From: an uncultured bacterium
Lineage (GTDB): Bacteria; Patescibacteriota; Minisyncoccia; Phycocordibacterales; PALSA-1337
DNA length: 18,288 nt
Direction: 5' to 3'
Assembly: GCA_903905325.1 (NCBI GenBank)
Contig: CAIVGA010000060.1
Location: 1 to 18,288 of the forward strand
Shown here: piece by piece, positions 3,265-18,288 of the stretch
How positions within the stretch are numbered: position 1 is the stretch's first letter
How the letters are laid out: each line of letters starts with the position of its first letter
Notes under the pieces: model-generated
What the model was told of the DNA's origin: nothing
Databases searched by the model: none
The model's input: the letters and a program-made list of their open reading frames with translations, nothing else
Made by a program: the position numbers and the translations under genes

Positions 3265-3270
3265 AAGACG

Positions 3271-3279
3271 TGGTATAAT
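3271..3279 (+). promoter_or_regulatory. Extended -10 promoter element (TGgTATAAT) placed for a leaderless transcript
   Basis: TGG 3271-3273 and TATAAT 3274-3279, then exactly 7 nt to the ATG at 3287. No SD-like purine tract. Confidence 0.5.
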
Positions 3280-3286
3280 GGTCTTC

Positions 3287-4357: not shown

Positions 4358-4386
4358 TTTATTATCTTTTAATTATTTTAAATAGA

Positions 4387-4680
4387 ATGGAACAAAACCA
4401 AACAAATACAGCACCAGGAACAATAGGCGGAGCACCAAAGAAGGTTGGCCCCATCATCATGAGTTCAGTAGTTGTCCTTGTAATCATTGCGGTTAGCATA
4501 TATTTCTTTGCTTCACGAGCAGAGCATAGTAGCGTTACAGCTCCCACAAAGCAGACTGGCGCTTCTACTACAACCACAGTTCAGACCGTTAAACCTATTA
4601 CCAATACAGCAGACGATCCGCAGTCACTGCAAAATGATTTGAATAATTCTACGACAGGCTTGGATAGTCAGAATTTCTAA
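4387..4680 (+). CDS. Small single-pass membrane-anchored protein with Thr-rich extracytoplasmic tail
   Basis: 97-codon ORF with ATG start. One TM segment, IIMSSVVVLVIIAVSIYFFA. Same orientation as its neighbours. Confidence 0.6.
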   Translation: MEQNQTNTAPGTIGGAPKKVGPIIMSSVVVLVIIAVSIYFFASRAEHSSVTAPTKQTGASTTTTVQTVKPITNTADDPQSLQNDLNNSTTGLDSQNF

Positions 4681-4685
4681 TTTTA

Positions 4686-4714
4686 TTGCAAAATTCGTCG
4701 TGGCACGGTAAACT
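4686..4714 (+). promoter_or_regulatory. Sigma70-like promoter for tig (TTGCAA-N17-TAAACT), leaderless geometry
   Basis: TTGCAA 4686-4691, 17-nt spacer, TAAACT 4709-4714, then 7 nt to the ATG at 4722. The TTG at 4686 used by the ORF track is the -35 box, not a start codon. Confidence 0.55.
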
Positions 4715-4721
4715 CGACCCC

Positions 4722-5828: not shown

Positions 5829-5852
5829 AAATCCCGCGCACTTGCGAGGGAT
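5827..5852 (-). terminator. Intrinsic terminator for the minus-strand small unit (hairpin between convergent genes)
   Basis: ATCCCGCGC (5831-5839) pairs with GCGAGGGAT (5844-5852) with one mismatch and loop ACTT. On the minus strand the stem is followed by TTTTATTT. There is no T-run on the plus side. Confidence 0.55.
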
Positions 5853-5896
5853 GATTGTAAACGTGACAGCTAAATGTAACTAGTCAGTGTGATGAG

Positions 5897-6115
5897 TTAG
5901 CGTGCCAGACGAGCGCCGGATGCTTGTTTTCCCAGCAAAGCCGAAACAAAACAAGCATTAGCTTTCTTGAGATTCAAATTGTCATTAACGGGAACACCAC
6001 TTGTGTCCAAAGACGCAGCATCACCACTTTTCACTGCACGTAAGATTGCACGTACACGTTTACTGTTTGAAAGCCCTGGATGTTTCAAAGGATCACCTCT
6101 TGTTATTTTGTTCAA
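5897..6115 (-). CDS. Small basic hypothetical protein (start uncertain; TTG only)
   Basis: 72-codon ORF with no in-frame ATG. The alternative TTG at codon 10 is preceded by AGAGGTGA. Codon choice (CGT, GCT, GGT, GTT) resembles the core genes. It has its own promoter and terminator, but contains a perfect 11-bp hairpin, so an RNA role cannot be excluded. Confidence 0.4.
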   Translation of the reverse strand: MNKITRGDPLKHPGLSNSKRVRAILRAVKSGDAASLDTSGVPVNDNLNLKKANACFVSALLGKQASGARLAR

Positions 6116-6130
6116 CTAGTTCAGATGAAG

Positions 6131-6158
6131 ATAATACCACCGAATGCCATTATGTCAA
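6131..6158 (-). promoter_or_regulatory. Strong sigma70-like promoter (TTGACA-N16-TATTAT) on the minus strand
   Basis: Minus-strand TTGACA is the complement of 6153-6158 and TATTAT is the complement of 6131-6136, with a 16-nt spacer. It drives the 5897..6115 unit. Confidence 0.55.
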
Positions 6159-6190
6159 GAGGCATAAGAAAAAGATTGTGAGGATGACCC

Positions 6191-6289
6191 ATTACCAATT
6201 ACCCAACCTATATCCTGCATATATACCAACAAGCCCACCAATTGTTGATCCGACTATTACTCCAATCCAAATATAAGTTTTTGTATTCA
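6191..6289 (-). CDS. Possible 32-aa glycine-zipper membrane peptide (below the ORF-track cutoff)
   Basis: My own translation: ATG at 6289 gives MNTKTYIWIGVIVGSTIGGLVGIYAGYRLGNW then stop. It lies immediately downstream of rsmE on the same strand. No SD sequence. Confidence 0.25.
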
Positions 6290-6328
6290 TGATAATGTGT
6301 GAAACATTATAACCGATGAAATCCCTAT

Positions 6329-7132
6329 TTACCCAAACATGACCAGAGAAAGGGCAGCAACTACAGCGGTTTCTGAGCGTAGGACTTGATTTCCGAGAGA
6401 ATAAATGTCGATATTATGCTTGTGAAACAATTCTATTTCGTCTGGTGACCAACCACCTTCTGGGCCGATGAAAATATTCATCTTTACGTCTTTCGTCTTG
6501 CTGATCGACTTGCTGGATGAACCGCCAATCAAACCCTCACGCATTTTAGCCACAGAAAAGACCTCCCCCTCCGTATGAAACGCCAAATTCATGATGTCAC
6601 AAGTTGTGACATCGACTTTTTTAGAAAGCTCCACTGCTTCACTAAGCGTCGCTATGTCCCCAATCTCAGGTACATCACCACGACCACTCTGCTCACTAGC
6701 TTCAACAGCAATTTTACGTAAACGATCCATATTTAAAGACTTTTTTTCACTACGCTCTGCCATAACTGGAATCACACGAGACACACCGAGCTCCGTCGCC
6801 TTCTCAACAATCCATTCAAAAGTATCTTTCTTGACCACGCCGGCACATAAAATAACCTCACACATACCATCAAAACCATCGCGCCCGTGACCACCACGCC
6901 CAGCCATAAATCGACTTTGTTTTGCGCCCAACACCTTAACAGTAACAAAATCATTACCATAATCCTCAATAGAAGATTCATAGTCAAAACCCGAACCATC
7001 GAACAAAACCACGTGGTCACCCAACTTCAAACGAAAAACTTTGCGAATCTGGTTCGACAATTCAGCCGACTTAATTTTCATTTCGGTATTATTCCCTATT
7101 TTTTCCGTAATATAGAATCTGTGGAGCCGCAT
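6329..7132 (-). CDS. rsmE: 16S rRNA (uracil1498-N3)-methyltransferase RsmE (SPOUT family)
   Basis: Typical N-terminus MRLHRFYI. C-terminal knot motifs IFIGPEGGWSPDEIE and LGNQVLRSETA. 267 aa. Separated from the clpP stop by 2 nt. Confidence 0.9.
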   Translation of the reverse strand: MRLHRFYITEKIGNNTEMKIKSAELSNQIRKVFRLKLGDHVVLFDGSGFDYESSIEDYGNDFVTVKVLGAKQSRFMAGRGGHGRDGFDGMCEVILCAGVVKKDTFEWIVEKATELGVSRVIPVMAERSEKKSLNMDRLRKIAVEASEQSGRGDVPEIGDIATLSEAVELSKKVDVTTCDIMNLAFHTEGEVFSVAKMREGLIGGSSSKSISKTKDVKMNIFIGPEGGWSPDEIELFHKHNIDIYSLGNQVLRSETAVVAALSLVMFG

Positions 7133-7134
7133 TT

Positions 7135-7725
7135 TTACTTCTTTGAGTTACTCAAAACCTGGTCGATAATTCCATACTTCTTGGCCTCTTCAGCGTCCAT
7201 GAAGAAATCACGATCAACATCCTTTTCGATCTTGGCGAGAGTTTGACCAGTATTTTTTGCCAACATTTTGTTGAGAGATGCACGAGTCTTGATGATATGC
7301 TTGGCGCTTATTTCAATATCAGAAGCTTGACCTTCAGAACTACCAAGGGGTTGATGAATCATAACCTCAGCATTTGCCAAAGCTGTACGCTTACCTTTTG
7401 TTCCAGCTGAGAGAATAAGTGCAGCACCAGAAGCAGCGATACCAACACAAACAGTAGAAACATCGTTCTTTATATAATTTATCGTATCAATAATGGCGAG
7501 AGTTGCAGAAACTGAACCGCCAGGAGAATTAATGTAAAGTGAAATTTCTTTCTTTGGATCTTCAGATTGAATAAAGAGAAGCTGGGCAATAATGAGGTTG
7601 GCCATATGATCATCGATAGGACCACCAAGGAAAATAACATTATCCTTCAAAAGACGTGAGTAAATATCATAAGCACGTTCGCCTTGTGGGCTTTTCTCTA
7701 TAACTGTTGGAATGAGGTATGACAT
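7135..7725 (-). CDS. clpP: ATP-dependent Clp protease proteolytic subunit
   Basis: 196 aa with full-length resemblance to Clp[20 protein letters not shown], catalytic Ser context GIAASGAA, His context VMIHQPLG, Asp context [18 protein letters not shown]. Confidence 0.97.
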
Positions 7726-7762
7726 GGGGTTTATTTTGATGCTAATTAATTTTAGTAAGATT

Positions 7763-7790
7763 AATATACACTAAAATATGAATATGTCAA
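7763..7790 (-). promoter_or_regulatory. Sigma70-like promoter for clpP-rsmE (TTGACA-N16-TATATT)
   Basis: Minus-strand TTGACA is the complement of 7785-7790 and TATATT is the complement of 7763-7768, with a 16-nt spacer. It lies about 35 nt upstream of the clpP ATG. Confidence 0.5.
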
Positions 7791-7825
7791 AACTGACAAT
7801 GCGCTACTACCAAAACATATATTAT

Positions 7826-7854
7826 TTGCACTCCAGCCCCACCTGTTGTATTAT
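7826..7854 (+). promoter_or_regulatory. Candidate promoter for rny (TTGCAC-N17-TATTAT) giving a roughly 150-nt leader
   Basis: TTGCAC 7826-7831, 17-nt spacer, TATTAT 7849-7854. The next plus-strand gene starts at 8011. Confidence 0.4.
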
Positions 7855-8010
7855 GCTTATGTTACCAATTTAATTTTTGATTACGCTTTTTTAAGCCTTA
7901 GTGATAAAAACATTATGAACTTTCACCGATTCGATAGCCAAAAACACCTAGTAAAGCCTCATAAAATCATCATATCGCCATAGTCCTGAAAGAGCGGATC
8001 ACATTCGCTT

Positions 8011-9540
8011 ATGTCATTAAAAGAAGTCGCAGTCTATCTCTCGATCGCGGGAATAGTCGGTGTGGCTGTAGGTTACTACTTGCGTCTAATCATTTCTCTC
8101 GGTAAGAAAGGCTCAATGGAGCTCGAGATAAAAGAAATGCTTTTGACTGCCAAGGAGGAGGCCAAAAAGATAACGGCCGAAGCCGACGCCAAAACCGCCA
8201 AAATCCTTGACGATTCCAGAATAGAGATCAAAGCCAAAGAAGAAAAAATCAACCAAACCGAAGATCGCCTCATCAAAAAGGAGGGTTTTCTTGATAAACG
8301 CCAAGTCGATCTAGACAAGGAAGTCGAACTTATAAAGCAGAAAGTAGTCGAGATCAAGACTATTCGTGAGCAAGCAGACAAACTCGAAGCAGAACGTAAG
8401 TCTGCTTTGGAGAAAGTTGCCAGACTCACAGCCGAAGAAGCCAAGAAAGAAATCATCAAGGTTATAGAGAAGCAAGAAGAAGAAGATTTGCTTGTCAGAA
8501 TGAATAAGATGGAATCTCAGGGTGAAGAAATGCTCGCCAATAAAGCCAAAGACATTCTCGCAATGTCTATTCAGCGTTTGGCTTCATCAGTTGCTTCAGA
8601 TGTCATGTCGACTATTGTCCCAATTCCAAGTGATGATTTGAAAGGTAAAATTATTGGAAAAGAGGGTCGCAACATCAAAGCCTTTGAGCGTATTACTGGT
8701 GTTGAAGTACTCGTCGATGATACTCCAGGTGCAATTACTATTTCATCATTCGATCCAGTACGTCGTCACACCGCTCGTATTGCGCTCGAAGAACTTATAA
8801 AAGATGGCCGTATTCAGCCATCTCGTATTGAACAGGTCGTAGAAAAAGCCAAGCTTGATATAAATAAAACCATCAAAGAAAAAGGTGAGGCTGCCGCTTA
8901 TGAATGTGGCATTATCGGACTCGATCCACGCATACTTCTCATTCTCGGACGCCTTCATTTCCGTACAAGTTATGGTCAGAATGTTCTCCAACACTCTATC
9001 GAGATGTCACATATCGCTGGTATGATAGCGGAAGAGATCGGTGCAAACGTGCAAGTCGCCAAAGCTGGCGCTCTTCTCCACGATCTTGGAAAAGCACTCG
9101 ACCATGAAGTTGTCGGTACACACGTGGAGATCGGTCGTCGCATATTGCAAAAGTTCGGTGCTTCTGAAGAGATCGTCAAAGCCATGCAGGCTCATCATGA
9201 GGAATATCCTTATGAAACAGTCGAGTCACGTATCGTTCAGACTGCTGACGCTATCTCTGGAGCTCGTCCAGGTGCTCGTCGTGACAATGTAGAGAATTAT
9301 CTCAAACGTCTCGGCGACCTAGAGGCCCTCGCCAACTCATTCCCTGGCATCGATAAGGCCTATGCCCTCCAAGCCGGTCGTGAAATCCGCATATTCGTCA
9401 GACCAGAAGAGCTCGGTGATGTAGAATCCAAGGAATTGGCACGTAATATTGCTCTCAAGATTGAAAAAGATCTCAAATATCCAGGTGAAATTAAGGTTAT
9501 TGTTATTAGAGAAACGAGGACGATGGAGTTCGCCAGATAA
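8011..9540 (+). CDS. rny: Ribonuclease Y
   Basis: 509 aa. N-terminal TM helix, K/E-rich coiled coil, KH motif GKIIGKEGRNIKAFE, and HD domain LLHDLGKALDHE...HHEEY. Confidence 0.95.
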   Translation: MSLKEVAVYLSIAGIVGVAVGYYLRLIISLGKKGSMELEIKEMLLTAKEEAKKITAEADAKTAKILDDSRIEIKAKEEKINQTEDRLIKKEGFLDKRQVDLDKEVELIKQKVVEIKTIREQADKLEAERKSALEKVARLTAEEAKKEIIKVIEKQEEEDLLVRMNKMESQGEEMLANKAKDILAMSIQRLASSVASDVMSTIVPIPSDDLKGKIIGKEGRNIKAFERITGVEVLVDDTPGAITISSFDPVRRHTARIALEELIKDGRIQPSRIEQVVEKAKLDINKTIKEKGEAAAYECGIIGLDPRILLILGRLHFRTSYGQNVLQHSIEMSHIAGMIAEEIGANVQVAKAGALLHDLGKALDHEVVGTHVEIGRRILQKFGASEEIVKAMQAHHEEYPYETVESRIVQTADAISGARPGARRDNVENYLKRLGDLEALANSFPGIDKAYALQAGREIRIFVRPEELGDVESKELARNIALKIEKDLKYPGEIKVIVIRETRTMEFAR

Positions 9541-9599
9541 GATGGAGTTTGCACGCTAGTCGTACGATTTTTTCGTACAAATCAAGAAAGGCCGCGTTT

Positions 9600-10433
9600 T
9601 TACTTAATTCGCGGTTTTTCTTTTGGTAAGTAATTCCCTTTATTTACAACTTTCTTACCACTCACCTTCTCTAAATCTTTTCTAGTCCTTCCTGCGACAG
9701 CACCACCGTCTTTTGCATCTTTTTGCAATGCTGGCGTTCCAACAGAGTCACGACTTTGTGTAATATTCGTCGTCGCAGCTTCTCCAAGCATAGACAATAT
9801 AAGTTCAACATCATTCATGTGATCACGAAGATTATTTTCTCTGTCAAAATCTTTGAAATTCTTATACTCCTGTGCTGACATCTCAAAGGTTCCTTTGTAA
9901 ATCTCGTCAGTCAGAATAGCAAACTCCGAACTAGCTCTAACGCCACGATTTTTCCACTCATCTGTCAGAGTATTACGAACATTGATGCCACGCATCCTCT
10001 TATCAATCCAGCTTTTGGGATATCCTTTCTTCTCATATATAGCTTTTGCACGATTGACGGCCAACTCTGGATCTTGAATCTCATCTATGCGGTCCTTTCC
10101 GAGTTGAGCCAGCCAGAGCTTCAACGGTTCTGCTTTAGGAGAAGGGATAGATTGGATAATTCTGAAAATACCAGCCAAATCGGTACAACTCATCTTCTGA
10201 CGACCTCCTTTGGTAGTCACGTCAAGGGTATGTACAATTTGTACCCACCCTTTGTTAAGCATATCATCACGTTCTCTCATTCTATTAAGATATTGCTTAG
10301 GATCATTAGAATTCGTAAGGGCATAAACCACATCTTCAACCACAAAGAATACCCTTCCATCATGCCAAGCACGTCGAAACTCTTGCGTTCCAAAAAGTGT
10401 CATAGCTTTTGTATATAGATTTTCTTCATCCAT
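9600..10433 (-). CDS. Bro-N domain / DinD-like (DNA-damage-inducible protein D family) protein, phage-associated type
   Basis: N-terminal Bro-N-like LFGTQEFRRAWHDGRVFFVVEDVVYAL. The C-terminal half resembles my recollection of E. coli DinD (LRDHMNDVELILSMLGEAATT..AGRTRKDLE). The ATG at 10433 is preferred over the TTG at 10454. GAGGAG and TATAAT lie upstream. Confidence 0.75.
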   Translation of the reverse strand: MDEENLYTKAMTLFGTQEFRRAWHDGRVFFVVEDVVYALTNSNDPKQYLNRMRERDDMLNKGWVQIVHTLDVTTKGGRQKMSCTDLAGIFRIIQSIPSPKAEPLKLWLAQLGKDRIDEIQDPELAVNRAKAIYEKKGYPKSWIDKRMRGINVRNTLTDEWKNRGVRASSEFAILTDEIYKGTFEMSAQEYKNFKDFDRENNLRDHMNDVELILSMLGEAATTNITQSRDSVGTPALQKDAKDGGAVAGRTRKDLEKVSGKKVVNKGNYLPKEKPRIK

Positions 10434-10606
10434 GAACGCAATTATACTCCTCAAAAAAATCCTGGGAACTTCCGCGTGTCAAAATTTTATTTCGTGGTGA
10501 GAAATTTGTCTACAAAAATTTGCTTAAAGTTTGTGGGGTAAAAGAAAAGCCCCACACAATTTCTTATGTGAGGCCGAGATTTAAGCATAATCTCGAAAGC
10601 GTTAGA

Positions 10607-11236
10607 CTATAACTCTCTGCCGTAAGACATTGCTTTCACTTCTGTCTTCAAGATATTTCTAAGGATTTGGAGGGGACTCTCCCCAGATTGGCGCTTAAAG
10701 ACAAGCCACTGCGCTTTGTCCCTGTATTCCCATCGGTGCGTAACACTCGCCCTGGTAGCAAGAAACTCTTGCAATTCCTTGACTCGTCTAATGCAGGCTG
10801 AGCAGTTGTTACATTCGAATAGTGTTACCTGGAGACGAATGTGACTTGGTCTATACACAAGTTGTCGATCACGTGTCCAACCACTTATATGCACTGTTGT
10901 GGCAGAACTTTCCAATAACTGTTTTGGTGTGTTGATTCTGACGATATCATATATTCCACTTCTCATCTTCCCAAGAGCTTCATCAAAATCTTTTGGCCAT
11001 AAAGCTCGGATTTCCTTTTGACTTACCTTTTTAGGTTTTTGGAATGCTGCGAATCTAATGCGGAAACACCCCAGATCTGGAACCGTTATCTGCGTCTCGT
11101 GATACATAGATTTCATACCACGAGGACGATATTCTCCTGTGCCAGACATAATTTTTGCCAGATCTTTACCAACAAAATATATGTCGTCAAGATTATCATC
11201 CTCACACTTGAATTTAACGAATGCCAATTTTTTCAT
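10607..11236 (-). CDS. Hypothetical protein (209 aa), unknown family; CxxCxxC and two H-x-T/S motifs
   Basis: Long ORF. The ATG at 11236 is preceded by AGGA, and the GTG at 11272 is less likely. Contains CNNCSAC, YHETQ and VHISG. No family recognised by eye. Confidence 0.6.
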   Translation of the reverse strand: MKKLAFVKFKCEDDNLDDIYFVGKDLAKIMSGTGEYRPRGMKSMYHETQITVPDLGCFRIRFAAFQKPKKVSQKEIRALWPKDFDEALGKMRSGIYDIVRINTPKQLLESSATTVHISGWTRDRQLVYRPSHIRLQVTLFECNNCSACIRRVKELQEFLATRASVTHRWEYRDKAQWLVFKRQSGESPLQILRNILKTEVKAMSYGREL

Positions 11237-11307
11237 GCGATTATCCTGTACTGGTGTATTGTTTGAGTACACCTACTTAAAACTCATATTTTTGTCAAAG
11301 AACTTCT

Positions 11308-11356
11308 CTGTTTCGCTCTTTTGAGCTCATCAGCCGAGACGCATATCTCGGGACAG
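11308..11356 (-). ncRNA. Type III hammerhead ribozyme, copy 1
   Basis: Minus strand: CUGUC|CCGAGA-uaugcg-UCUCGG-CUGAUGA-GCUC-aaaa-GAGC-GAA-ACAG. All conserved core nucleotides are present, with a GUC cleavage triplet. Stem I differs from copies 2 and 3 by compensatory changes. Confidence 0.85.
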
Positions 11357-11367
11357 TTTTTTATGTC

Positions 11368-11736
11368 TTAGATTTCTCTTTCTTTTATCTGTAGGAGGTG
11401 TAGGTGGAAGTGTCCAGGGATTGATTTCTGTTTGTGTGTGTTTTCAAGAATCATGTCGTATTTGTCGTTAATGTCTTTTTTAATTTCTTTAAATTCCCTT
11501 AATTCTTCTTCTGTGAGGTCATCCTCTATTGTGTGTCTTAGCGGCACTATCATGTCGTTCTTTGTATCTACCTCGTCGTAAGGAAACTCGTTTTCGATTT
11601 TTTTCCACCCTTTGTAAGTTTTTATTGGCTTCGCTGTGCAAATGTAGCAAGTTGGAAACTTTGGAGTTTTTTGGTATTTTTCGTAGTTTGTATGCGTTTC
11701 CAGAGTTCTTAGTGTTTTAACTTTTTGTGTAGTCAT
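11368..11736 (-). CDS. HIT (histidine triad) family nucleotide hydrolase/transferase-like protein
   Basis: 122 aa. N-terminal CYIC (compare the Hint CxxC), MIVPLRH (compare H.LviPkrH), and C-terminal triad SIPGHFHLHLLQ (HxHxHxx). AT-rich codon usage like the host. Confidence 0.6.
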   Translation of the reverse strand: MTTQKVKTLRTLETHTNYEKYQKTPKFPTCYICTAKPIKTYKGWKKIENEFPYDEVDTKNDMIVPLRHTIEDDLTEEELREFKEIKKDINDKYDMILENTHKQKSIPGHFHLHLLQIKEREI

Positions 11737-11783
11737 TTTTATTTGCCTTATTTGTTTTGATAATTTTTCGACCTTTATTTTTA

Positions 11784-11832
11784 CTGTTTCGCTCTTTTGA
11801 GCTCTTCAGGCAGGATCCACATCCTGCGACAG
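11784..11832 (-). ncRNA. Type III hammerhead ribozyme, copy 2
   Basis: Minus strand: CUGUC|GCAGGA-ugugga-UCCUGC-CUGAAGA-GCUC-aaaa-GAGC-GAA-ACAG. The only core difference is at the unconstrained N7 position (A instead of U). Confidence 0.85.
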
Positions 11833-11877
11833 AAGGGGTTTGGAGTAGAACCAAACCCCACCATTCAGCGTCACCTC

Positions 11878-12258
11878 CTAGAGTTCCCTGATTCGGACTC
11901 CCTTGCGCGGACCGATCCAGACTTCGAATTGCCTGTCTTCGAATCTGCCTCCAGTGCCATACCCAGGCTCACTCAAGTCGTGTTTCTTGAGCAGGCCACG
12001 CGCCCAAGCTTTCCGGCGAATGAGGAACTGGATCCTTCGATCTTCCCTGGAATCTGAGCCGATCTCGGTCCCCGTGTTTGCCCGCTCATACACACTCACC
12101 ATCGAGCAAACTTCTGCTGGTGCAGTGCGGTCGTTTCCTGGTATCGACACACGTGGTTGGATCTCGGGACCCTCCACCCTCCGGAAGACTTCAGAAAGTT
12201 GCTCTTTGGTGATTCTGCGAATCCACTGGTGACTTGTTTGTTTGTTGCGTGCGCTCAT
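11878..12258 (-). CDS. Doubtful ORF: 126-aa highly basic hypothetical protein, or a spurious ORF inside a GC-rich structured RNA
   Basis: ATG start preceded by AAGAAGG. First codon positions are purine-rich. However, the region is GC-rich with long ORFs in several frames on both strands and several strong hairpins. Confidence 0.3.
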   Translation of the reverse strand: MSARNKQTSHQWIRRITKEQLSEVFRRVEGPEIQPRVSIPGNDRTAPAEVCSMVSVYERANTGTEIGSDSREDRRIQFLIRRKAWARGLLKKHDLSEPGYGTGGRFEDRQFEVWIGPRKGVRIREL

Positions 12259-12323
12259 TTGTGCCTTCTTTCTGCCCCTTCCGGAGCGGTTGTTGGTTTG
12301 TTGGCTCGTTTCAAAGATCTATT

Positions 12324-12372
12324 CTGTTTCGCTCTTTTGAGCTCATCAGGCAGGACTCATATCCTGCGACAG
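12324..12372 (-). ncRNA. Type III hammerhead ribozyme, copy 3
   Basis: Minus strand: CUGUC|GCAGGA-uaugag-UCCUGC-CUGAUGA-GCUC-aaaa-GAGC-GAA-ACAG. Stem III can extend to 5 bp (UCUGU/ACAGA). Confidence 0.85.
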
Positions 12373-12600
12373 AGTGGGTGGACCCAGTGTGCTGTTTTCG
12401 CACCTGAGTCCAACCCACCTTTATCCAGACTTAGCTCGATCTAACCCAGTAGATCGATTCTCATCTGGTTCTCGGTTGCGTTGCCGAGGGGAGACCCGTA
12501 TCAGGGTTTACTCCCTTACGCCCAGCTGCTTCATGCAGCCCTGCGTTTCTAATGCACTCGTTTGCTAGTCGAGTGTTGTTTTCAAAGTCTTTCTTTCTCT
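12373..12600 (-). ncRNA. GC-rich structured leader RNA of unknown class upstream (5') of hammerhead copy 3
   Basis: Six back-to-back hairpins at 12374-12418, 12425-12468 (with nested 7-bp TCGATCT/AGATCGA), 12471-12488, 12489-12515, 12525-12539 and 12555-12575. About 60% GC on a hand-counted 60-nt sample. Strand is assigned only by adjacency to the hammerheads. Confidence 0.4.
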
Positions 12601-12794
12601 TCGTCTTTGGTCCGTTGAACAATATATATGAATAATCTTGACAATGCTGGTCAGACATGGTCTTTTTGTAATCAATTAAATAAAATTTGGCTCAAATACC
12701 TAAGCAGAGCCACATTCTTCGTGGTCTTAACTGTAACTTATAGTTACATATTTTATGTTTCAAAGCACAAAATACTCAATACGAGCCCAAATAC

Positions 12795-12823
12795 TTGCTT
12801 TAAACGCACCATAACTGTATATT
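12795..12823 (+). promoter_or_regulatory. Candidate promoter for the TrmB-like gene (TTGCTT-N17-TATATT)
   Basis: TTGCTT 12795-12800, 17-nt spacer, TATATT 12818-12823. An alternative leaderless-type -10 box, TAGAAT at 12851-12856, lies 6 nt before the ATG. Confidence 0.4.
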
Positions 12824-12862
12824 ACTAGTGTACAAATTATTACACTTCAATAGAATAAATAT

Positions 12863-13591
12863 ATGGATAAAAACAAGGTTTTAGAGAAAATTGGCCTAAC
12901 AAAAAACGAAAGCGCTATATATTTGGCCCTCGTAGAGCTTGGTCCATCAAACATATCCAAGATTTCACAGAAAACCGCCATACATAGACCACTCATTTAT
13001 AAAGCACTTCCTTCCCTACTAGAAAAGAAGCTCATTACACAGAATCATCGTCAAAACAGAATGATCTACATGGCTGAACCACCAAACAGGCTTGAGGCAA
13101 TCTTTGATGATTTAAAAATTGACCTATTCGAGATTCTGCCAGATCTTGAAGACTCATATTCAAGCAATGAGCAGAAACCAAAAGTCAGGTTTCTTGAAGG
13201 CAAAGACGGAACAAAGAGAATATTTGATGACATTGTAAGAAGTCTCAAAAAGGGAGATGTATTTTATAGATATAGCTCAAACCGTGATGGCCAAGAGAAA
13301 AAAGACAAGTATGTACCACGTGGATACAGGAAAATGCGTGATGCTAAACAACTTCAGAGAGAGGTCATAACAAATGAACAAACTTCAAAGCATAAAATCC
13401 AGAAGCTAGACCGCTTTGTTAAGACAATGCCGGGAGATTTCGGACCTTTTGAGCACAACGTGACTGAGGTCATATATGGAAACAAGGTGGCTTTCATCGA
13501 CTACAACTCGGAAACTGCTATGGTTATAGAGAGTAAGAGAATAGCAGAGTTTCAAAAACACATTTTCAAGATGTTTTATAAGAAATTATAG
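12863..13591 (+). CDS. TrmB-family winged-helix transcriptional regulator
   Basis: The N-terminus LGLTKNESAIYLALVELGPSNISKISQKTAIHRPLIYKALPSLLEKKLI matches the TrmB-type wHTH pattern. 242 aa. Confidence 0.8.
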   Translation: MDKNKVLEKIGLTKNESAIYLALVELGPSNISKISQKTAIHRPLIYKALPSLLEKKLITQNHRQNRMIYMAEPPNRLEAIFDDLKIDLFEILPDLEDSYSSNEQKPKVRFLEGKDGTKRIFDDIVRSLKKGDVFYRYSSNRDGQEKKDKYVPRGYRKMRDAKQLQREVITNEQTSKHKIQKLDRFVKTMPGDFGPFEHNVTEVIYGNKVAFIDYNSETAMVIESKRIAEFQKHIFKMFYKKL

Positions 13592-13670
13592 TGTACCTGA
13601 ACATAAATTACCCATTTTTAGCTCTAATTCCCCCATCCACAGCTTATCCCACCCTCATATTTCACCCCTA

Positions 13671-13698
13671 TTGCCTAAAATATGGCTTAATATATAAT
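13671..13698 (+). promoter_or_regulatory. Sigma70-like promoter for hup (TTGCCT-N16-TATAAT)
   Basis: TTGCCT 13671-13676, 16-nt spacer, TATAAT 13693-13698. About 55 nt upstream of the hup ATG. Confidence 0.5.
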
Positions 13699-13753
13699 GT
13701 ACCTTACAGATCGATTATATTATTAGCCATTAATAGAACTAATCAAAAATACT

Positions 13754-14026
13754 ATGAACAAAGCAGCTATCGCAGAAGCAGTTCACGGAATCCTCGGAGG
13801 AACAAAGGTTCAGGCCGAGCAAGCCGTTGAGACAATGATCAACAGCATCATTGATTCTCTCAAGAAGGGTGAAGAGGTCTCTATTGCAGGTCTCGGTATC
13901 TTCTCAGTCAAGCAGCGTGCAGCTCGTCAGGCACGTAATCCTCGCACAGGCGAGTCTATCAACGTCCCAGCTATGAAGGTTCCAAAGTTCCGCGCCGCAA
14001 AGGCCTTGAAGGACGCAGTTAAATAA
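13754..14026 (+). CDS. hup: Nucleoid-associated DNA-binding protein HU
   Basis: 90 aa. MNKAAIAEAV..., beta-arm GLGIFSVKQRAARQARNPRTGESINVPAMKVPKFRAAKALKDAV. Confidence 0.95.
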   Translation: MNKAAIAEAVHGILGGTKVQAEQAVETMINSIIDSLKKGEEVSIAGLGIFSVKQRAARQARNPRTGESINVPAMKVPKFRAAKALKDAVK

Positions 14027-14045
14027 ATCGGTTCCCTTTTTGGAA

Positions 14046-14078
14046 AACAAAAGGCCTCCTTAATGGAGGTTTTTTGTT
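14046..14078 (+). terminator. Intrinsic terminator after hup
   Basis: CCTCC (14055-14059) pairs with GGAGG (14065-14069), extended by G-U and A-T pairs, and is followed by TTTTTT at 14070-14075. Confidence 0.6.
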
Positions 14079-14108
14079 ATAATACCCGCACCCCCAAGAT
14101 CGACATCC

Positions 14109-14783
14109 ATGACCTACCATACCCTACTCGTCAGCGATATTCATATTGGATCCAAGATCTGTCGCACGGACAAAATAATCGAACTTTTAAAAACGACTCA
14201 ATATAAAACGCTCATAATTAACGGTGATCTTTTTGATTCTGAAGTAACAAAATCATTCGACAATATGCATTGGCAATTAGTCTCTCTAATTTCCAAGGTC
14301 GCAGAGACGCGTAAAGTAATCATGGTTGGAGGTAATCACGGCCGTAAATTAGACGGTCTGGCCCGCAAAATAGGGATTGAAATTATGGACGATCATACTT
14401 TCATTGTCGGTCCTAATAAATTCCTATGCATACACGGAGACCAATTCGATCCATTTGTGACTTATTTACCACGCACCACACACATATTTACCCATTTATT
14501 TTATATCATTCAGCATATAAATAAGAAAAACCAGAACTCCTCTATGCTTATCAAGCGTCTGAGCAAGCGTATATTGGGAGTTTCGTCACACAGACAACAA
14601 AAACTTGCCATGCATCAAGCTATTCGAAGAAATGCCAATGTTGTTATTTGTTCTCATACCCATTTACCGTATACAAATTCAAAAAATAATTTGCTCTACA
14701 TAAACTCTGGTTCATTCTGTGATAATCCTTCTACTTATGTGACCATTGATCACAGGGGTAACGCCAAGCTGGAAAGGATATAG
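14109..14783 (+). CDS. Calcineurin-like metallophosphoesterase (LpxH/YaeI-like fold, substrate unknown)
   Basis: Ordered metallophosphoesterase motifs SDIHIG, NGDLFD, GGNHG, IHGDQFD and CSHTH. An extended -10 (TGtTATAAT, 14075-14083) lies upstream. Confidence 0.85.
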   Translation: MTYHTLLVSDIHIGSKICRTDKIIELLKTTQYKTLIINGDLFDSEVTKSFDNMHWQLVSLISKVAETRKVIMVGGNHGRKLDGLARKIGIEIMDDHTFIVGPNKFLCIHGDQFDPFVTYLPRTTHIFTHLFYIIQHINKKNQNSSMLIKRLSKRILGVSSHRQQKLAMHQAIRRNANVVICSHTHLPYTNSKNNLLYINSGSFCDNPSTYVTIDHRGNAKLERI

Positions 14784-14822
14784 GATATACTTGGGATAAA
14801 AAGGCGGTTTTTTGTTGACCCC

Positions 14823-14848
14823 ACCTTTCTGCCACTACCTTTCTGCCA
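14823..14848 (+). repeat. Perfect tandem 12-mer ACCTTTCTGCCA x2 (2-nt gap) just upstream of the kinase-like gene
   Basis: ACCTTTCTGCCA at 14823-14834 and at 14837-14848. A -10-like TATACT (14858-14863) and the ATG (14870) follow. Confidence 0.5.
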
Positions 14849-14869
14849 AATTTCATATATACTATCTCC

Positions 14870-15676
14870 ATGCCAGAATCTGAATTAAAAGTAGGACACT
14901 TCGACAGCCATGATCACAGCCAGGAAGAGCACCCTCAACTTTCTATTGAAAAAGTTGATATTCAGGTCAGGAATCTTATTGAGGCTATTTTGACCAATAG
15001 AACAGATTTCCTTGGAAACGGGTTAACTGCTGAAGTATACATACCAGAAGAATCAGAGAAAATTTGTTTCAAAATTTGTTGTTATCGTGAAGTATTAGGA
15101 AAAAATCCTCCTAAATCAAGTATTCGTACCACAACAACATTTGAGCCTAGTCATCCGAAATATGGCTATCATTCACCAGATACAGAGGGTACATTTTTGC
15201 AAGAATTGCATACCTTATCCAAAGAAGTAGATATTCCCAATCCGTGTTGTTGGGCAATTTATAAACAAACTGATGATGGTGATACTTACTCTACAAAAGA
15301 ACTCATATACGTGCTGGCAATGGAACGATTGGATGCGGTATCGATAAAAGATGTTATTGAAAAACGTGCTGTACTTCCCACAACTTTTAACTTTGAAACT
15401 TTCTTCAAAAAACTAAGAGTTTTTATATCCAAAATGCATGAAAAAGGAATATACCATCGTGATCTGCACGAGGGCAATATCATGATTGATGATAATGGAA
15501 ATCCGTGTGTAATAGATTTCGGTAAAGCTGCACGTGGATTCGGAGATGATGTATATGACATTGATTATCGTGAAGGCGGCCAACTCAGAAAAGGAAAGCT
15601 TACCAGCGATGAGGAATATGTGAATCAAGTTGAGAGATTGTTAATTAAACATATGACAAAAGACACGACCGTTTAA
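14870..15676 (+). CDS. Small protein-kinase-like fold protein (Ser/Thr kinase, Kdo/RIO-like or small-molecule kinase)
   Basis: Gly-rich loop LGNGLTAEVY, candidate catalytic Lys in ICFKI, catalytic loop YHRDLHEGNIMID, and IDFGKA. 268 aa. Confidence 0.75.
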   Translation: MPESELKVGHFDSHDHSQEEHPQLSIEKVDIQVRNLIEAILTNRTDFLGNGLTAEVYIPEESEKICFKICCYREVLGKNPPKSSIRTTTTFEPSHPKYGYHSPDTEGTFLQELHTLSKEVDIPNPCCWAIYKQTDDGDTYSTKELIYVLAMERLDAVSIKDVIEKRAVLPTTFNFETFFKKLRVFISKMHEKGIYHRDLHEGNIMIDDNGNPCVIDFGKAARGFGDDVYDIDYREGGQLRKGKLTSDEEYVNQVERLLIKHMTKDTTV

Positions 15677-15690
15677 TCCAGCAGTGTGGT

Positions 15691-15719
15691 TTGACAAATA
15701 TTATTATATATGTAATTAT
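15691..15719 (+). promoter_or_regulatory. Candidate promoter (TTGACA-N16/17-TAATTA/AATTAT) for the small downstream ORF
   Basis: Perfect TTGACA at 15691-15696. An AT-rich -10 lies around 15713-15719, about 10 nt before the ATG at 15729. Confidence 0.45.
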
Positions 15720-15728
15720 GAAATAAGT

Positions 15729-15932
15729 ATGAAGATGTTCAATCAAAGTGAATGTGAAGCTGCGGCAAAGGAAATGTTACGCGACAATAAGGCCTTGAAA
15801 GCTCTGGAATTGGTGACGATCATCCGAGTGGGTACAAAGGAATACGAAGAAAAACTCGCCGGAACCAAGACCCCAACACCAGTGTCATCATTCAAAGTCG
15901 ATAACATTGACTTCGCAGTTTTCATGAACTGA
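15729..15932 (+). CDS. Small hypothetical protein (67 aa)
   Basis: The ATG at 15729 is preferred over the GTG at 15684, which would overlap the promoter. Followed by a strong terminator. No family recognised. Confidence 0.45.
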   Translation: MKMFNQSECEAAAKEMLRDNKALKALELVTIIRVGTKEYEEKLAGTKTPTPVSSFKVDNIDFAVFMN

Positions 15933-15948
15933 AACCAACTATCTTCCC

Positions 15949-15981
15949 CCGTCACATTGGGTGTGTGACGGTTTTTGTTTT
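15949..15981 (+). terminator. Intrinsic terminator
   Basis: CCGTCACA (15949-15956) pairs with TGTGACGG (15964-15971) with a 7-nt loop, followed by TTTTTGTTTT. Confidence 0.7.
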
Positions 15982-16011
15982 ATAAAATTTGTTACTAACT
16001 AGACGATTCGC

Positions 16012-16085
16012 TGGTGCGGGATAGGAGAGTCGAACTCCTCACCACAGTTTGGAAAACTGTTATTATACCGATTAACTAATCCCGC
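16012..16085 (-). tRNA. tRNA-Gly (anticodon UCC), CCA encoded
   Basis: Hand-folded cloverleaf: acceptor GCGGGAU/AUCCCGC, anticodon stem ACAGU/ACUGU with loop UUUCCAA, T-loop UUCGACU, and 3' ACCA. 74 nt. Confidence 0.95.
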
Positions 16086-16087
16086 AT

Positions 16088-16576
16088 TTATTTTTTCTCT
16101 TCGCCACCAGACTTCCCTACACTGGCCGCCGATGTAGGATGACGCATTTTATACTCTTCGTCAACTTCTTCTTTCATTTCATCGACTTCTTTTTTCATCT
16201 CTTTAATCGTTGTCTGAATTTTCTTCAACTCATTTTCTTCCTCCTCTACTTCCTTCTCTGTCTTATCAGTCACCTTCTTTTGCTTCTTAATACCACTAAT
16301 CAATATCGTATCACCAACGAAATATGACACAAACAAACCGATCAAAAGAAGAATGACTGTGACGATAATAAGATTTGTTGGCTCATAAAATATCGCACCC
16401 AACCATCCGCCTTGTGATTGAAGAATATCAGCAGTGTGCCATACCCCTCTCCAAAAAAGCACGACCGCAATACCACCGATAATAGTATAAACAATCGGAT
16501 ATTGACTCAGATGTCCACGTACGACATCTTCAAGCTTATCGAAGAAATTATATATTTTCTTATAGATTTCTCTCAT
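16088..16576 (-). CDS. Hypothetical membrane protein with two TM helices and an acidic/lysine-rich coiled-coil tail
   Basis: 162 aa with ATG start. TM segments YPIVYTIIGGIAVVLFW and LIIVTVILLLIGLFVSYFVG. The tail reads EKEVEEEENELKKIQTTIKEMKKEVDEMKEEVDEE. The stop codon is 2 nt from the 5' end of tRNA-Gly. Confidence 0.7.
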   Translation of the reverse strand: MREIYKKIYNFFDKLEDVVRGHLSQYPIVYTIIGGIAVVLFWRGVWHTADILQSQGGWLGAIFYEPTNLIIVTVILLLIGLFVSYFVGDTILISGIKKQKKVTDKTEKEVEEEENELKKIQTTIKEMKKEVDEMKEEVDEEYKMRHPTSAASVGKSGGEEKK

Positions 16577-16617
16577 GATTTATATGTCGCACACTTTCAC
16601 TACTTTATACTAACTTG

Positions 16618-16690
16618 TCGGGGCGCCGGGATTCGAACCCGGAGTCACCTCTTCCCAAAAGAGGCATGTTAGCCGTTACACCACGCCCCG
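16618..16690 (-). tRNA. tRNA-Pro (anticodon UGG), no encoded CCA
   Basis: Hand-folded: acceptor CGGGGCG/CGCCCCG, anticodon stem CCUCU/AGAGG with loop UUUGGGA, T-arm CCGGG-UUCGAAU-CCCGG. 73 nt. Confidence 0.95.
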
Positions 16691-16762
16691 ATTTACAAAT
16701 TACCTTGCTCTACATAGACGCCTTAATTTTTACAACGCCGTTCGAATATCCTAACATAAATC

Positions 16763-17176
16763 TTACAAAATAACATTCTTTAGCCATTTAACACGGGCTT
16801 TTCTTGTCTTCATATTGATATAGACACATAAAACATGAAAATAAAACTCCGTATCTAGTCCGAAACATATCCCGTCAGTATTTACACCAGAATCACACAT
16901 ATATGTTTGAATCATTCTACGAATATGCCTAGTTTTGAGAGAATGTACATTATCTTCTGGACGAAATCCAGTCCAATACCCCGTTATACTTTTTACTTCA
17001 AAAAAATGTAGAGGGCGACAAATACCAGATGTTTCACGTGCAACATTTTCAACAGCAACGATATCCAGTTCACCCCATTTCTTCTGATAATTTCGTGAAA
17101 CAATCACAAATCCCCTCTTTTCAAGGTATCTGCAAGCAATATCCTCACCAATATTTCCAGTCGATCTAGTACTCAT
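16763..17176 (-). CDS. yraN: YraN-family (UPF0102) endonuclease-like protein
   Basis: GNIGEDIACRYLEKRGFVIVSRNY..WGELDIVA...FFEVKS matches the YraN pattern G.GE..A..YL...G..I..RN....GE.D..A....FVEVK. 137 aa. Confidence 0.8.
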   Translation of the reverse strand: MSTRSTGNIGEDIACRYLEKRGFVIVSRNYQKKWGELDIVAVENVARETSGICRPLHFFEVKSITGYWTGFRPEDNVHSLKTRHIRRMIQTYMCDSGVNTDGICFGLDTEFYFHVLCVYINMKTRKARVKWLKNVIL

Positions 17177-17250
17177 AAATTAATATGAATTAACGACAAA
17201 TTTTACGTTTTGTAACACCTTTTTGATGACTTTTAAAGTGTCCCAAAGAT

Positions 17251-17272
17251 AAATAGCTCAATAAAGCCATTT
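17251..17272. repeat. 22-nt perfect direct repeat, copy A (AAATAGCTCAATAAAGCCATTT)
   Basis: Identical to 17385-17406. Intergenic, between yraN and tRNA-Gly(GCC). Confidence 0.8.
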
Positions 17273-17340
17273 TCTAGAAAGGACAAGAAATTAACATCAA
17301 AACGACGATTTATAGCCATAAATTATGTCTTTTATAAACG

Positions 17341-17361
17341 TCATCCACAGAGTTATCCACA
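17341..17361 (+). promoter_or_regulatory. Tandem DnaA-box-like pair (TCATCCACA gag TTATCCACA)
   Basis: TTATCCACA at 17353-17361 is a perfect match to the consensus DnaA R-box. TCATCCACA at 17341-17349 has one mismatch. Both are in the same orientation, 3 nt apart. Confidence 0.4.
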
Positions 17362-17384
17362 GTTTGAATAACCCAATATCTTCA

Positions 17385-17406
17385 AAATAGCTCAATAAAG
17401 CCATTT
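17385..17406. repeat. 22-nt perfect direct repeat, copy B
   Basis: AAATAGCTCAATAAAGCCATTT, identical to 17251-17272 and 134 nt away. The DnaA-box pair lies between the two copies. Confidence 0.8.
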
Positions 17407-17438
17407 ATATTGCTCTTCGCGGCAGGCGAAGCGAATTG

Positions 17439-17509
17439 TGCGGGTAGGGAGAATCGAACTCCCACCTCGTCCTTGGCAAGGACGCGTCCTACCACTAAAC
17501 GATACCCGC
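17439..17509 (-). tRNA. tRNA-Gly (anticodon GCC), no encoded CCA
   Basis: Hand-folded: acceptor GCGGGUA/UACCCGC, anticodon stem CGUCC/GGACG with loop UUGCCAA, T-arm GGGAG-UUCGAUU-CUCCC. 71 nt. Confidence 0.95.
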
Positions 17510-17591
17510 AAAATACTAACGCAGTGTAGTATAGCGTAACTTTATTTTTTTACCAAGTTTTTCTTTTTTTCACGCTTCCAAAAACTTTTTG

Positions 17592-17664
17592 TGCGCCCGG
17601 TAGGACTCGAACCTACAACCCCTTGGTCCGAAGCCAAGTGCTCTATCCTTTGAGCCACGGGCGC
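17592..17664 (-). tRNA. tRNA-Arg (anticodon UCG), no encoded CCA
   Basis: Hand-folded: acceptor GCGCCCG/CGGGCGC, anticodon stem CUUGG/CCAAG with loop CUUCGGA, T-arm GUAGG-UUCGAGU-CCUAC. 73 nt. Confidence 0.95.
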
Positions 17665-18288
17665 TTATAACTTGTTACTATAATACTGGATAAGTAACTT
17701 TTGCCAAGCCTTCATAACTCTCAAGTAACGTATGCCGCCAACGCCGAGTCTAACACATCCCTGGTAATCAGGGTTTTTCTTCACATTGTGTGGAGTTTTC
17801 TTGTATATTGTCTTTTGGAATAAATATGGCTCTACAGCAAGCTTTTCTGACCAAAATATCTGCGAGTTTTCATAACCAGGTATGTCATGAATAAATAATC
17901 TGATTTTAATTTTATCATGGCCTATCAATAAAAACTTCTGAATCCATTTGTACATAAAAATAATCATATCGGAGTCAGAATTAACAAAATTAAACTGACT
18001 GTCACGTTTAGATCCTTCTGCCCAATACAATGCGACACCAATAAGAAAAACTGGATCCAAACAAAATTTTTGAAAATCTATCTTTGCTTCATCTTCTACT
18101 TTTTTCTCACGAACAGCTCTATTTGACCGATTTGTAAATATAGTTTTAATTCTTCCCTCATTCTGCCTCTCCATCATCCGTTTCTTTAAAAAAGCCTCCT
18201 CATTAGCAGAAAGTCTGATATACTTTAACCATCCAGACAACAGACCTTTGGAAACACTTATTTCCTTCTGGATTTCTTTATAACTAAA
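17665..18288 (-). CDS. Partial CDS (N-terminus off-window): HTH plus LAGLIDADG-like homing-endonuclease-type protein
   Basis: The reading frame stays open to the window edge (upstream residues FSYKEIQKEISVSKGLLSGWL look like an HTH). LIGVALYWAEGSKRD resembles a single LAGLIDADG-type motif. The stop codon directly abuts the 5' end of tRNA-Arg. Confidence 0.55.
   Translation of the reverse strand, partial: FSYKEIQKEISVSKGLLSGWLKYIRLSANEEAFLKKRMMERQNEGRIKTIFTNRSNRAVREKKVEDEAKIDFQKFCLDPVFLIGVALYWAEGSKRDSQFNFVNSDSDMIIFMYKWIQKFLLIGHDKIKIRLFIHDIPGYENSQIFWSEKLAVEPYLFQKTIYKKTPHNVKKNPDYQGCVRLGVGGIRYLRVMKAWQKLLIQYYSNKL

Follow-up and report, generated by a model that had tools for sequence, protein, structure and literature searches.

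Three tandem type III hammerhead ribozymes predicted to divide a minus-strand gene unit in a genome of the Candidate Phyla Radiation

Bacterial hammerhead ribozymes are known to occur in clusters. In prophage-like regions, Perreault et al. 2011 found several hammerheads placed around single genes, with a triple around ardA in Agrobacterium tumefaciens and clusters in Clostridium scindens and Azorhizobium caulinodans among the examples (PMC3088659). Cleavage was reported for three clustered arrangements, including the A. tumefaciens triple (PMC3088659). Transcripts of ~2 kb from the three arrangements gave the expected products in vitro, and the A. tumefaciens triple was also found to cleave in vivo after cloning (PMC3088659). 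The present work concerns a comparable array in an uncultured bacterium of the Candidate Phyla Radiation (CPR), located on contig CAIVGA010000060.1 of assembly GCA_903905325.1; the whole stretch that was analysed, positions 1 to 18,288, is referred to below as the window. Three copies of a 49-nt repeat on its minus strand are confirmed as canonical type III hammerheads that are predicted to self-cleave. The best reading of the locus is one of ribozyme-based transcript processing, in which three functional hammerheads would self-cleave one polycistronic minus-strand transcript into a leader and single-gene RNAs, and this reading is given a probability of about 0.8.

Considered by itself, the motif is an ordinary type III hammerhead with a layout already known from Perreault et al. 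2011. As in their clusters, several hammerheads are grouped on one strand around single genes that differ in identity, there is a phage-type gene (Bro-N) in the vicinity, and the proposed role is the processing of a long transcript into single-gene mRNAs. The locus departs from those clusters in several respects, however. The host is a CPR bacterium (Paceibacteria-like), all copies are of type III and belong to one subfamily with a near-fixed stem II (GCUC-NAAA-GAGC), and the array lies between TrmB/HU and RNase Y/ClpP, at a conserved site of the chromosome with no recognisable prophage; in addition, what precedes the first copy is a structured non-coding leader and not a gene, and cleavage is for the present a prediction. 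A second point of comparison is the Rfam family Hammerhead_3 (RF00008), known from viroids, satellite RNAs and retrozymes. Core and topology are the same and the model aligns over its full length, but loop 2 has 4 nt here against 8 in the model consensus, stem III has 4-5 bp against 7, and the setting is a bacterial chromosome, with the copies lying among protein genes, instead of a replicating circular RNA or a repeat of a retroelement.

On the minus strand, the features of the unit follow one another as leader RNA, HHR-A, ORF126, HHR-B, ORF122, HHR-C, ORF209 and a terminator-like hairpin (HHR, hammerhead ribozyme; ORF, open reading frame), an order that agrees with an earlier note on this DNA, where hammerheads were said to separate a leader and three cistrons of the same strand from one another. 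HHR-A lies at 12373..12323 (-), with its 49-nt repeat at 12372-12324, HHR-B at 11832..11784 (-) and HHR-C at 11356..11308 (-). The copies are 540 and 476 nt apart, one same-strand ORF comes after each, and the sequences around them are mutually unrelated beyond the repeat. Read on the minus strand, each copy consists of CUGU-C17, a stem I hairpin, CUGANGA, GCUC-AAAA-GAGC, GAA and ACAG. The catalytic core (C3 U4 G5 A6 N7 G8 A9, G12 A13 A14, A15.1-U16.1 and H17) is complete in all three copies, and the pairs adjacent to it are G-C or C-G at 1.1-2.1, G-C at 10.1-11.1 and A-U at 15.1-16.1 throughout. The topology is that of type III, with loops capping stems I and II and both RNA ends in stem III. 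Stem I has 6-7 bp and a loop of 4-6 nt. Stem III is short, as the earlier note had said (5, 4 and 4 bp in HHR-A, HHR-B and HHR-C), and 4-6 bp is the norm for the subfamily. Differences between copies are limited to N7 (U, A and U, respectively), loop 1 and three compensated stem I pairs, where GCAGGA/UCCUGC in HHR-A and HHR-B becomes CCGAGA/UCUCGG in HHR-C through the changes G-C to C-G, A-U to G-C and G-C to A-U. The sequence read thereby confirms what had been claimed of this variation, namely that in the core it is confined to N7 and that three stem I pairs are doubly substituted. Cleavage is predicted 3′ of C17, at 12368|12367 (HHR-A), 11828|11827 (HHR-B) and 11352|11351 (HHR-C).

Pattern searches and covariance models single out the same three segments. 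Three matches to the pattern of core and stem II are present in the window, a number that stays the same when up to 3 mismatches are allowed, and 200 dinucleotide-preserving shuffles gave none. A covariance model of our own (R1) found exactly three matches over both strands of the window, with 75.6 bits for HHR-A, 74.0 for HHR-B and 72.9 for HHR-C. In a local scan with RF00008, HHR-A scored 45.7 bits (E 1.7e-8), HHR-B 38.1 (2.4e-6) and HHR-C 35.1 (1.6e-5), with an alignment that spans model positions 1-54 of 54 in every case; over the whole window, the E-values range from 2.4e-7 to 2.3e-4. Sequence read, R1 and RF00008 are thus in accord with the earlier description of three same-polarity minus-strand copies with a full type III core at these coordinates. 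The copies also satisfy the hammerhead acceptance rules stated by Perreault et al. 2011 (PMC3088659).

Relatives of the array were gathered in two independent ways, by a pattern scan for the core together with this stem II and by collecting the contexts of protein homologs of the neighbouring genes. The pattern scan yielded 58 IMG/VR loci and at least 119 genome loci; the relative loci compared with the window bear L-numbers (L063, L141, L194 and so on), and two of them, L059 and L060, match the window at 100% identity and offered nothing to compare. When 26 distinct type III copies are aligned, 17 columns are invariant, and these comprise the core positions together with the stem pairs beside them. 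Of the cells in this alignment 92% are paired, as against 34-47% when the partners are slid by 1-3 columns, and double-sided changes occur in 13 of the 16 pairs. Stem I is 100% paired with six of six pairs covarying, and the observed values for pairing and covariation were matched by 0 of 500 shuffles. Stem II is fixed by the search pattern in the phage set and its covariation rests on the CPR loci retrieved through proteins, where GCUC/GAGC is replaced by GUCC/GGAC and by GCUU/AAGC. Natural variants are found at tolerated positions only, these being N7, H17 (U17 in L141) and the 10.1-11.1 pair (G10.1-U11.1, also in L141). Loop 1 begins with an invariant U, and the A residues of the A-rich loop 2 (NAAA) are nearly invariant, features that are only suggestive of a tertiary contact between loops 1 and 2 of the kind that would favour fast cleavage. 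The covariation across 26 relatives and the compensatory changes of stem II in orthologous loci sustain the view, put forward earlier from the three copies alone, that selection acts on structure and not on sequence.

Neighbouring genes place the array at a site shared with several relatives. In the syntenic loci L069-L072, HU, TrmB and a 65-aa protein are followed by one hammerhead and an ORF209 homolog, and this hammerhead has the stem I of HHR-C with stem II GUCC/GGAC (two compensatory pairs) and the core kept; L069 and L071 have one hammerhead and one gene, versus three of each in the window. In L063, which is more distant, the order of an ORF126-like gene, ORF122 and an ORF209C-like gene is kept with a hammerhead in each spacer, and seven hammerhead matches form two arrays, each next to a TrmB gene. 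L141 has a leader and HHR-A that are 80% identical to those of the window and lead directly to the ORF122 homolog; set against this arrangement, the window contains precisely one additional unit, 540 nt from hammerhead to hammerhead, which is that of ORF126 (GC 55% vs ~37%). L194 is a close relative with flanks 86-90% identical, in which everything between leader hairpin H4 and RNase Y has been replaced (1417-3016 vs window 9543-12422). The replacement begins with a 48-aa ORF and a hairpin, continues with the only hammerhead, which shares 98% identity with HHR-B, and then has an ORF209C-like gene and a toxin-antitoxin-like Gp49-like/HTH pair. This pair stands at the site where the window has its Bro-N/PDC-S13 gene, itself missing from L194. 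Because of these comparisons with L069-L072, L063, L141 and L194, the predicted ribozymes are taken to be conserved at orthologous positions, and the stretch from TrmB to RNase Y is, on the same sequence evidence, a variable hotspot built from hammerhead-delimited modules.

Arrays of this kind have turned out to be common. Over 605 kb of viral and relative loci, R1 gave 127 matches at E <= 1, including same-strand arrays of three to seven in L011, L015, L030-L033, L036, L040, L043, L047 and L063, and over 594 kb of genome loci it gave 141 matches with many arrays of three to five. A stricter scanner, run over all collected loci, found 233 hammerheads and 46 locus-strands with two to four copies, a median hammerhead spacing of 837 nt and a stem III mostly of 4-6 bp; hammerheads were present on both strands in only 1 of 165 loci. 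The earlier note had called a same-strand triple array unusual, a statement that does not survive the precedent of Perreault et al. 2011 (PMC3088659) and the frequency of arrays of 2-7 copies in IMG/VR and CPR loci. The siting of the hammerheads is itself informative. The 40 nt upstream of them are more structured than controls (-10.8 vs -7.05 kcal/mol, p = 2e-11), a same-strand ORF starts within 150 nt downstream at a rate of 0.80, as opposed to 0.67 for random positions and 0.57 for antisense, and location inside a long open frame is rarer than for random segments (0.36 vs 0.61).

Among the matches listed for the genome loci (at least 119, L075-L193), 98 have CPR names, 9 have names from other phyla and 12 are unnamed, and this CPR enrichment applies to the present subfamily only, since the genome scan was tied to one stem II sequence. 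Some genomes hold several hammerhead loci (e.g., OY969413.1 and CAZEMP010000002.1). One locus labelled Bacteroidales, L117 (CAZMDE010000221.1), has ClpP/TrmB-like sequence ~72% identical to the window and three hammerheads; that resemblance makes it a probable case of a CPR contig assigned to the wrong bin. In the literature searched, no publication was found that links hammerheads to CPR, and what is new relative to that literature is the concentration of this subfamily in CPR and its recurrent siting by TrmB-like regulators at a variable chromosomal site.

Considering the above, a mechanism may be proposed in which each ribozyme folds during transcription and cuts 3′ of C17. The upstream product would then end in ...CUGUC with a 2′,3′-cyclic phosphate, and for HHR-A and HHR-B this end would come just after a stable hairpin, that is, after H5, which would be the 3′-terminal hairpin of the leader fragment, and after the hairpin at 11859-11835, which would serve the ORF126 fragment in the same way. 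The downstream mRNA would start with a 5′-OH at the base of the stem I hairpin and would keep the ribozyme body as a structured 5′ end, because in the type III layout that body stays on the downstream RNA. The outcome would be a leader RNA together with three mRNAs of one gene each, which would be uncoupled in stability and translation. We infer that the three genes are co-transcribed, that the ribozymes are active in cleavage and that there are consequences for RNA stability. The mechanism is favoured because of the complete core, the covariation, the conservation at orthologous positions, the intergenic same-strand siting and the precedent of Perreault et al. 2011.

The RNA that precedes HHR-A would be the first product of such processing. 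The leader is ~370 nt long, and its structure is concentrated in a GC-rich 3′ part at 12418..12575 (-) with hairpins H0-H4, of which H1-H4 take up 12418..12554 (-). Folding of 12600-12369 gave a minimum free energy (MFE) of -98.4, as compared with -61.6 +/- 4.1 for shuffles (z = -8.9). The leader is conserved in L141 and L194 at 80-90% identity with compensatory changes, and in a two-sequence consensus 7 pairs are kept through double changes. A second covariance model (R2) scored 164, 164 and 148 bits on its three training sequences and was weak (22 bits) on L147, a Taylorbacteria metagenome-assembled genome (MAG) in which the match sits directly downstream of a hammerhead. No Rfam family matched the leader on its strand at E <= 10, and pattern scans for it returned one metagenome contig and 0 viral contigs. 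The leader could be a new class of cis-regulatory or small RNA. The long hairpin H5, at 12374..12419 (-) in the predicted fold, ends immediately 5′ of HHR-A. Its GUGGG/CCCAC in the window becomes GCGGG/CCCGC in L141, and it is absent in L194, which also lacks HHR-A. An SRP-like (signal recognition particle) reading of H5 was dropped as no model matched.

This pairing of a ribozyme with a structured RNA has a parallel in the theta ribozymes found by tRNA genes of gut phages (PMC10879173), where a ribozyme likewise adjoins a structured RNA and cleavage would define its end, as HHR-A would after H5, and where the setting is again one of phage-related or accessory regions. Theta ribozymes are HDV-like, however, whereas here the ribozyme is of another class, the partner is a ~190-nt unclassified leader and one of the three hammerheads alone is so placed. 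A 65-aa ORF within the leader was considered as a gene and rejected, with 80% nucleotide but 37% amino acid identity to L141, and it is unrelated to the syntenic 65-aa protein at that position in L069-L072. The latter protein (MKALQDLIGKQVIYSMF...) occupies the position of the leader in L071 (1964-2161), L069 (7609-7794), L070 (2525-2722) and L072 (1470-1667); it is well conserved, has a weak Pfam match to the RimP C-terminal SH3-like domain (E 0.0015) and is followed by a hairpin and the hammerhead.

A short conserved box lies downstream of the ribozymes, as TCTTTGAAA at 12309..12317 (-) after HHR-A and as TCTTTGACA at 11293..11301 (-) after HHR-C. Its consensus, (T)TCTTTGA(A/C)A, recurs in L063, L069, L071, L141, L194 and ~25 other CPR loci. 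CTTTGA stands 7-11 nt past GAAAC in 35 of 224 unique hammerheads (with one further copy at 18 nt), as against 3 of 224 in an upstream control, and the TCTTTGA box is confined to CPR or metagenome loci, the 58 viral loci being without it. Two roles tried for the box were discarded, that of a -35 element, there being no consistent -10 after it, and that of a stem II partner, there being no covariation with stem II variants.

Several observations weigh against transcript processing by these ribozymes. The RF00008 scores of all three copies are below the curated gathering score of 48.5 bits, and the Rfam search proposed in the earlier note therefore succeeded in part, with significant E-values but with Rfam's own threshold missed. 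That threshold is an operational annotation cut-off and not a biochemical criterion. The shortfall arises because loop 2 (a 4-nt gap) and stem III are shorter than in the model and because the outer part of stem III has mismatches; as a consequence of scores below 48.5, a default Rfam scan at gathering thresholds lists four tRNAs only. In predicted folds, stems I and II are present in every minimum-energy structure, and the 4-5-bp stem III appears in the minimum-energy fold of HHR-A alone, in short context; it is mostly absent because the CUG of the core competes for the same CAG. The enrichment of downstream ORFs, at 199 of 208 when uncontrolled, is modest once controlled. Signals for the ends of the transcript are at consensus level only: the promoter candidate at 12750..12779 (-), divergent from the TrmB-like gene, consists of TTGAGT, 18 nt and TAAAAT (9 of 12 matches in a consensus scan), and the regional count of such sites is no higher than in shuffles, and the likely end of the unit, a terminator-like hairpin with a T-run at 10548..10575 (-), comes from the same kind of scan. 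Regarding the fate of the products, RNase J1 degrades the 5′-OH fragment left by glmS self-cleavage in B. subtilis (PMC3328962), and by analogy the outcome of cleavage could be destabilising and not stabilising. Finally, a 2019 review calls the purpose of such bacterial ribozymes undefined (PMC6765202).

The hammerheads might instead act as a down-regulating or conditional device, either through degradation of the 5′-OH ends or through modulation of cleavage by the leader, the TrmB-like regulator, the TCTTTGA box or Mg2+. This is considered unlikely, though it draws on a real precedent: self-cleavage of the glmS mRNA (Collins et al. 2007, via PMC3328962) leaves a 5′-OH on the coding fragment, as is predicted here, the fate of that fragment sets expression, and decay by RNase J1 depends on the 5′-OH. 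The glmS ribozyme as described there is ligand-dependent, single and located in a 5′ UTR, whereas the present copies have no evident ligand domain and lie between cistrons. Perreault et al. 2011 themselves suggested slow or regulated phage hammerheads (PMC3088659). The marginal stem III with its competing CUG/CAG pairing, the conserved box 7-11 nt downstream of ~16% of copies and the strongly structured, conserved leader ahead of the array would all suit a regulated device. On the other hand, the cores agree with the consensus throughout, the conservation of loops 1 and 2 is of the kind that typifies fast constitutive hammerheads, none of the stems holds an inserted ligand-binding domain, and in L194 the same leader is not directly followed by a hammerhead. 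Moreover, the 5′ end left by the predicted cleavage would be base-paired in stem I, and base-paired 5′ ends tend to hinder 5′ exonucleases in bacterial mRNA decay.

A further possibility, slightly less likely again, is that genes are gained and lost as modules bounded by hammerheads, with the ribozymes persisting mainly as repeated cassette boundaries and mRNA processing being secondary. Units might be exchanged by recombination between the 49-nt repeats, or excised RNA units, with a 5′-OH and a 2′,3′-cyclic phosphate at their ends and identical stem III halves that could rebuild a hammerhead over the junction, might be ligated into circles and copied back. The exact one-unit indel of 540 nt relative to L141 is what such exchange would leave behind, although a direct-repeat indel is also expected from ordinary recombination and needs no special mechanism. 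The content of L194 between H4 and RNase Y has been replaced, yet its hammerhead is 98% identical to HHR-B, a pattern in keeping with mobile units; the left breakpoint, however, lies in the leader, ~50 nt before HHR-A, and not in a hammerhead. The single hammerhead and gene of the syntenic L069 and L071, set against three in the window, would also fit modules, but the conservation of gene order with the distant L063 fits an operon better than free cassettes. Since stem III is CUGU/ACAG in all three copies, chimeric hammerheads could form across unit ends, and spliced or circular products were raised as a possibility by Perreault et al. 2011, who sought them and found none (PMC3088659). The window ORFs include no reverse transcriptase, integrase or transposase, and the units carry conserved ORFs and are weakly structured overall (z = -2.2 and -1.8).

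Two specific versions of exchangeable units were tried and rejected. Circular, viroid-like RNAs of 540 and 476 nt were set aside, both units being coding and folding only mildly better than shuffles (z -2.2 and -1.8), and so were integron cassettes, with no integrase among the window ORFs and with repeat ends of CTGTC...GAAACAG, unlike the attC core RYYYAAC/GTTRRRY.

The third alternative, that the repeats are DNA-level elements (palindromic, attC-like or terminator) or a decayed prophage relic with a hammerhead likeness by chance, can appeal to a stem I that scores as a terminator-like hairpin on the plus strand, to the sub-threshold Rfam scores and to the adjacent phage-type Bro-N gene, but it is effectively excluded by invariant columns that are exactly the core and its adjacent pairs, by helices that vary through compensatory change and by variation limited to the permitted N7, H17 and G10.1-U11.1, and it is opposed as well by the strand specificity of the motif relative to genes, by ends unlike attC core sites and the lack of an integrase and, for a relic, by conservation of the hammerhead across orthologous loci at 59-74% protein identity.

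Transcript processing and modular exchange need not be entirely separate. It is conceivable, if improbable on present evidence, that the CPR type III subfamily delimits interchangeable modules at TrmB-side hotspots, acting both as a processing signal and as a recombination or RNA-level joint, and that HHR-A also matures the 3′ end of an uncatalogued class of leader RNA.

As for the genes that the processing reading would separate, ORF126, ORF122 and ORF209 themselves had no match in scans of Pfam, PHROGs or PADLOC. ORF126, the first cistron, lies at 11878..12258 (-) and has a GC of ~55% vs ~37% around it. A word-indexed protein search returned only its self-match, and this search without homologs had first suggested a non-coding unit; that suggestion was overturned by a local tblastn comparison, which aligned the C-terminal half of ORF126 with the gene that opens the L063 array at 47% identity (E 4e-17). 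By this criterion, ORF126 is a real, if predicted, gene. The hairpin that follows it, GGGGUUUGG-UUCUACU-CCAAACCCC at 11835..11859 (-), was recognised from sequence and fold, stands 2 nt upstream of HHR-B and has no U-tract after it. A stretch at 11840-12600, covering the 3′ part of the leader, HHR-A and ORF126, has a GC of 50-57%, compared with ~40% for the window average and ~37% immediately around it, which suggests that it is a module of separate origin.

ORF122, the second cistron, at 11368..11736 (-), encodes a HIT-superfamily protein with invariant CxxC and HxHxH motifs. It has 33 homologs, the named ones being from CPR (Adlerbacteria and Kaiserbacteria), and Pfam DUF3605 matches 11 of 22 members of the family. 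Its AlphaFold2 model has a pLDDT of 88.8, and the top PDB matches are all HIT/Hint proteins or Ap4A phosphorylase (probability ~1.0, TM ~0.5). ORF209, the third cistron, at 10607..11236 (-), has a C-terminal domain with an invariant CxxCxxC and four homologs (59-74% identity) in syntenic loci, and this domain recurs in other hammerhead arrays (L194, L063, L138 and L155). Its AlphaFold2 model reached a pLDDT of only 68, and Foldseek gave no meaningful fold match for it. The L194 paralog has a weak APOBEC-like Pfam match (E 0.002) that falls below the cut-off, and no HxE motif is conserved.

Divergent from the unit is the TrmB-like regulator at 12863..13591 (+) (Pfam TrmB, E 2.3e-14), and such genes also stand beside hammerhead arrays in L063 (twice), L069, L071-L073, L141 and L194. 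Directly downstream of the hammerhead operon is the Bro-N protein at 9600..10454 (-) (Pfam Bro-N 1.2e-10, PADLOC candidate defence family PDC-S13 8.8e-100, PHROG 15286), whose gene has promoter-like sites of its own and is counted as part of the variable segment and outside the hammerhead unit. This phage-type, anti-repressor-like gene is adjacent to the array, the window has no integrase or phage structural genes, and the flanks consist of RNase Y, ClpP, HU and tRNAs. Overall, the window carries RNase Y, ClpP, RsmE, HU, a metallophosphoesterase and four scattered tRNA genes, the last (Gly-TCC, Pro-TGG, Gly-GCC and Arg-TCG) being interspersed with small ORFs at 16012-17664 (-) and unrelated to the hammerhead unit. 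The housekeeping genes are closest to Paceibacteria/Patescibacteria MAGs at ~66-74% nucleotide identity, and with Paceibacteria/Parcubacteria MAGs as the closest named relatives, the CPR-like genome surmised in the earlier note is borne out.

The purpose of hundreds of bacterial and phage hammerheads is still open (PMC6765202), and the locus offers a clean comparative case. A ribozyme has been kept at the same intergenic positions in diverged relatives, an exact one-unit indel separates two of the loci, and hairpins are so placed that they would leave structured ends if cleavage occurs. The concentration of the subfamily in CPR (98 of 119 among the matches listed), usually as same-strand arrays, may prove of greater use than this one locus. 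With small genomes and a restricted repertoire of RNases, CPR bacteria could rely on ribozyme-based operon processing as a regular part of their gene expression.

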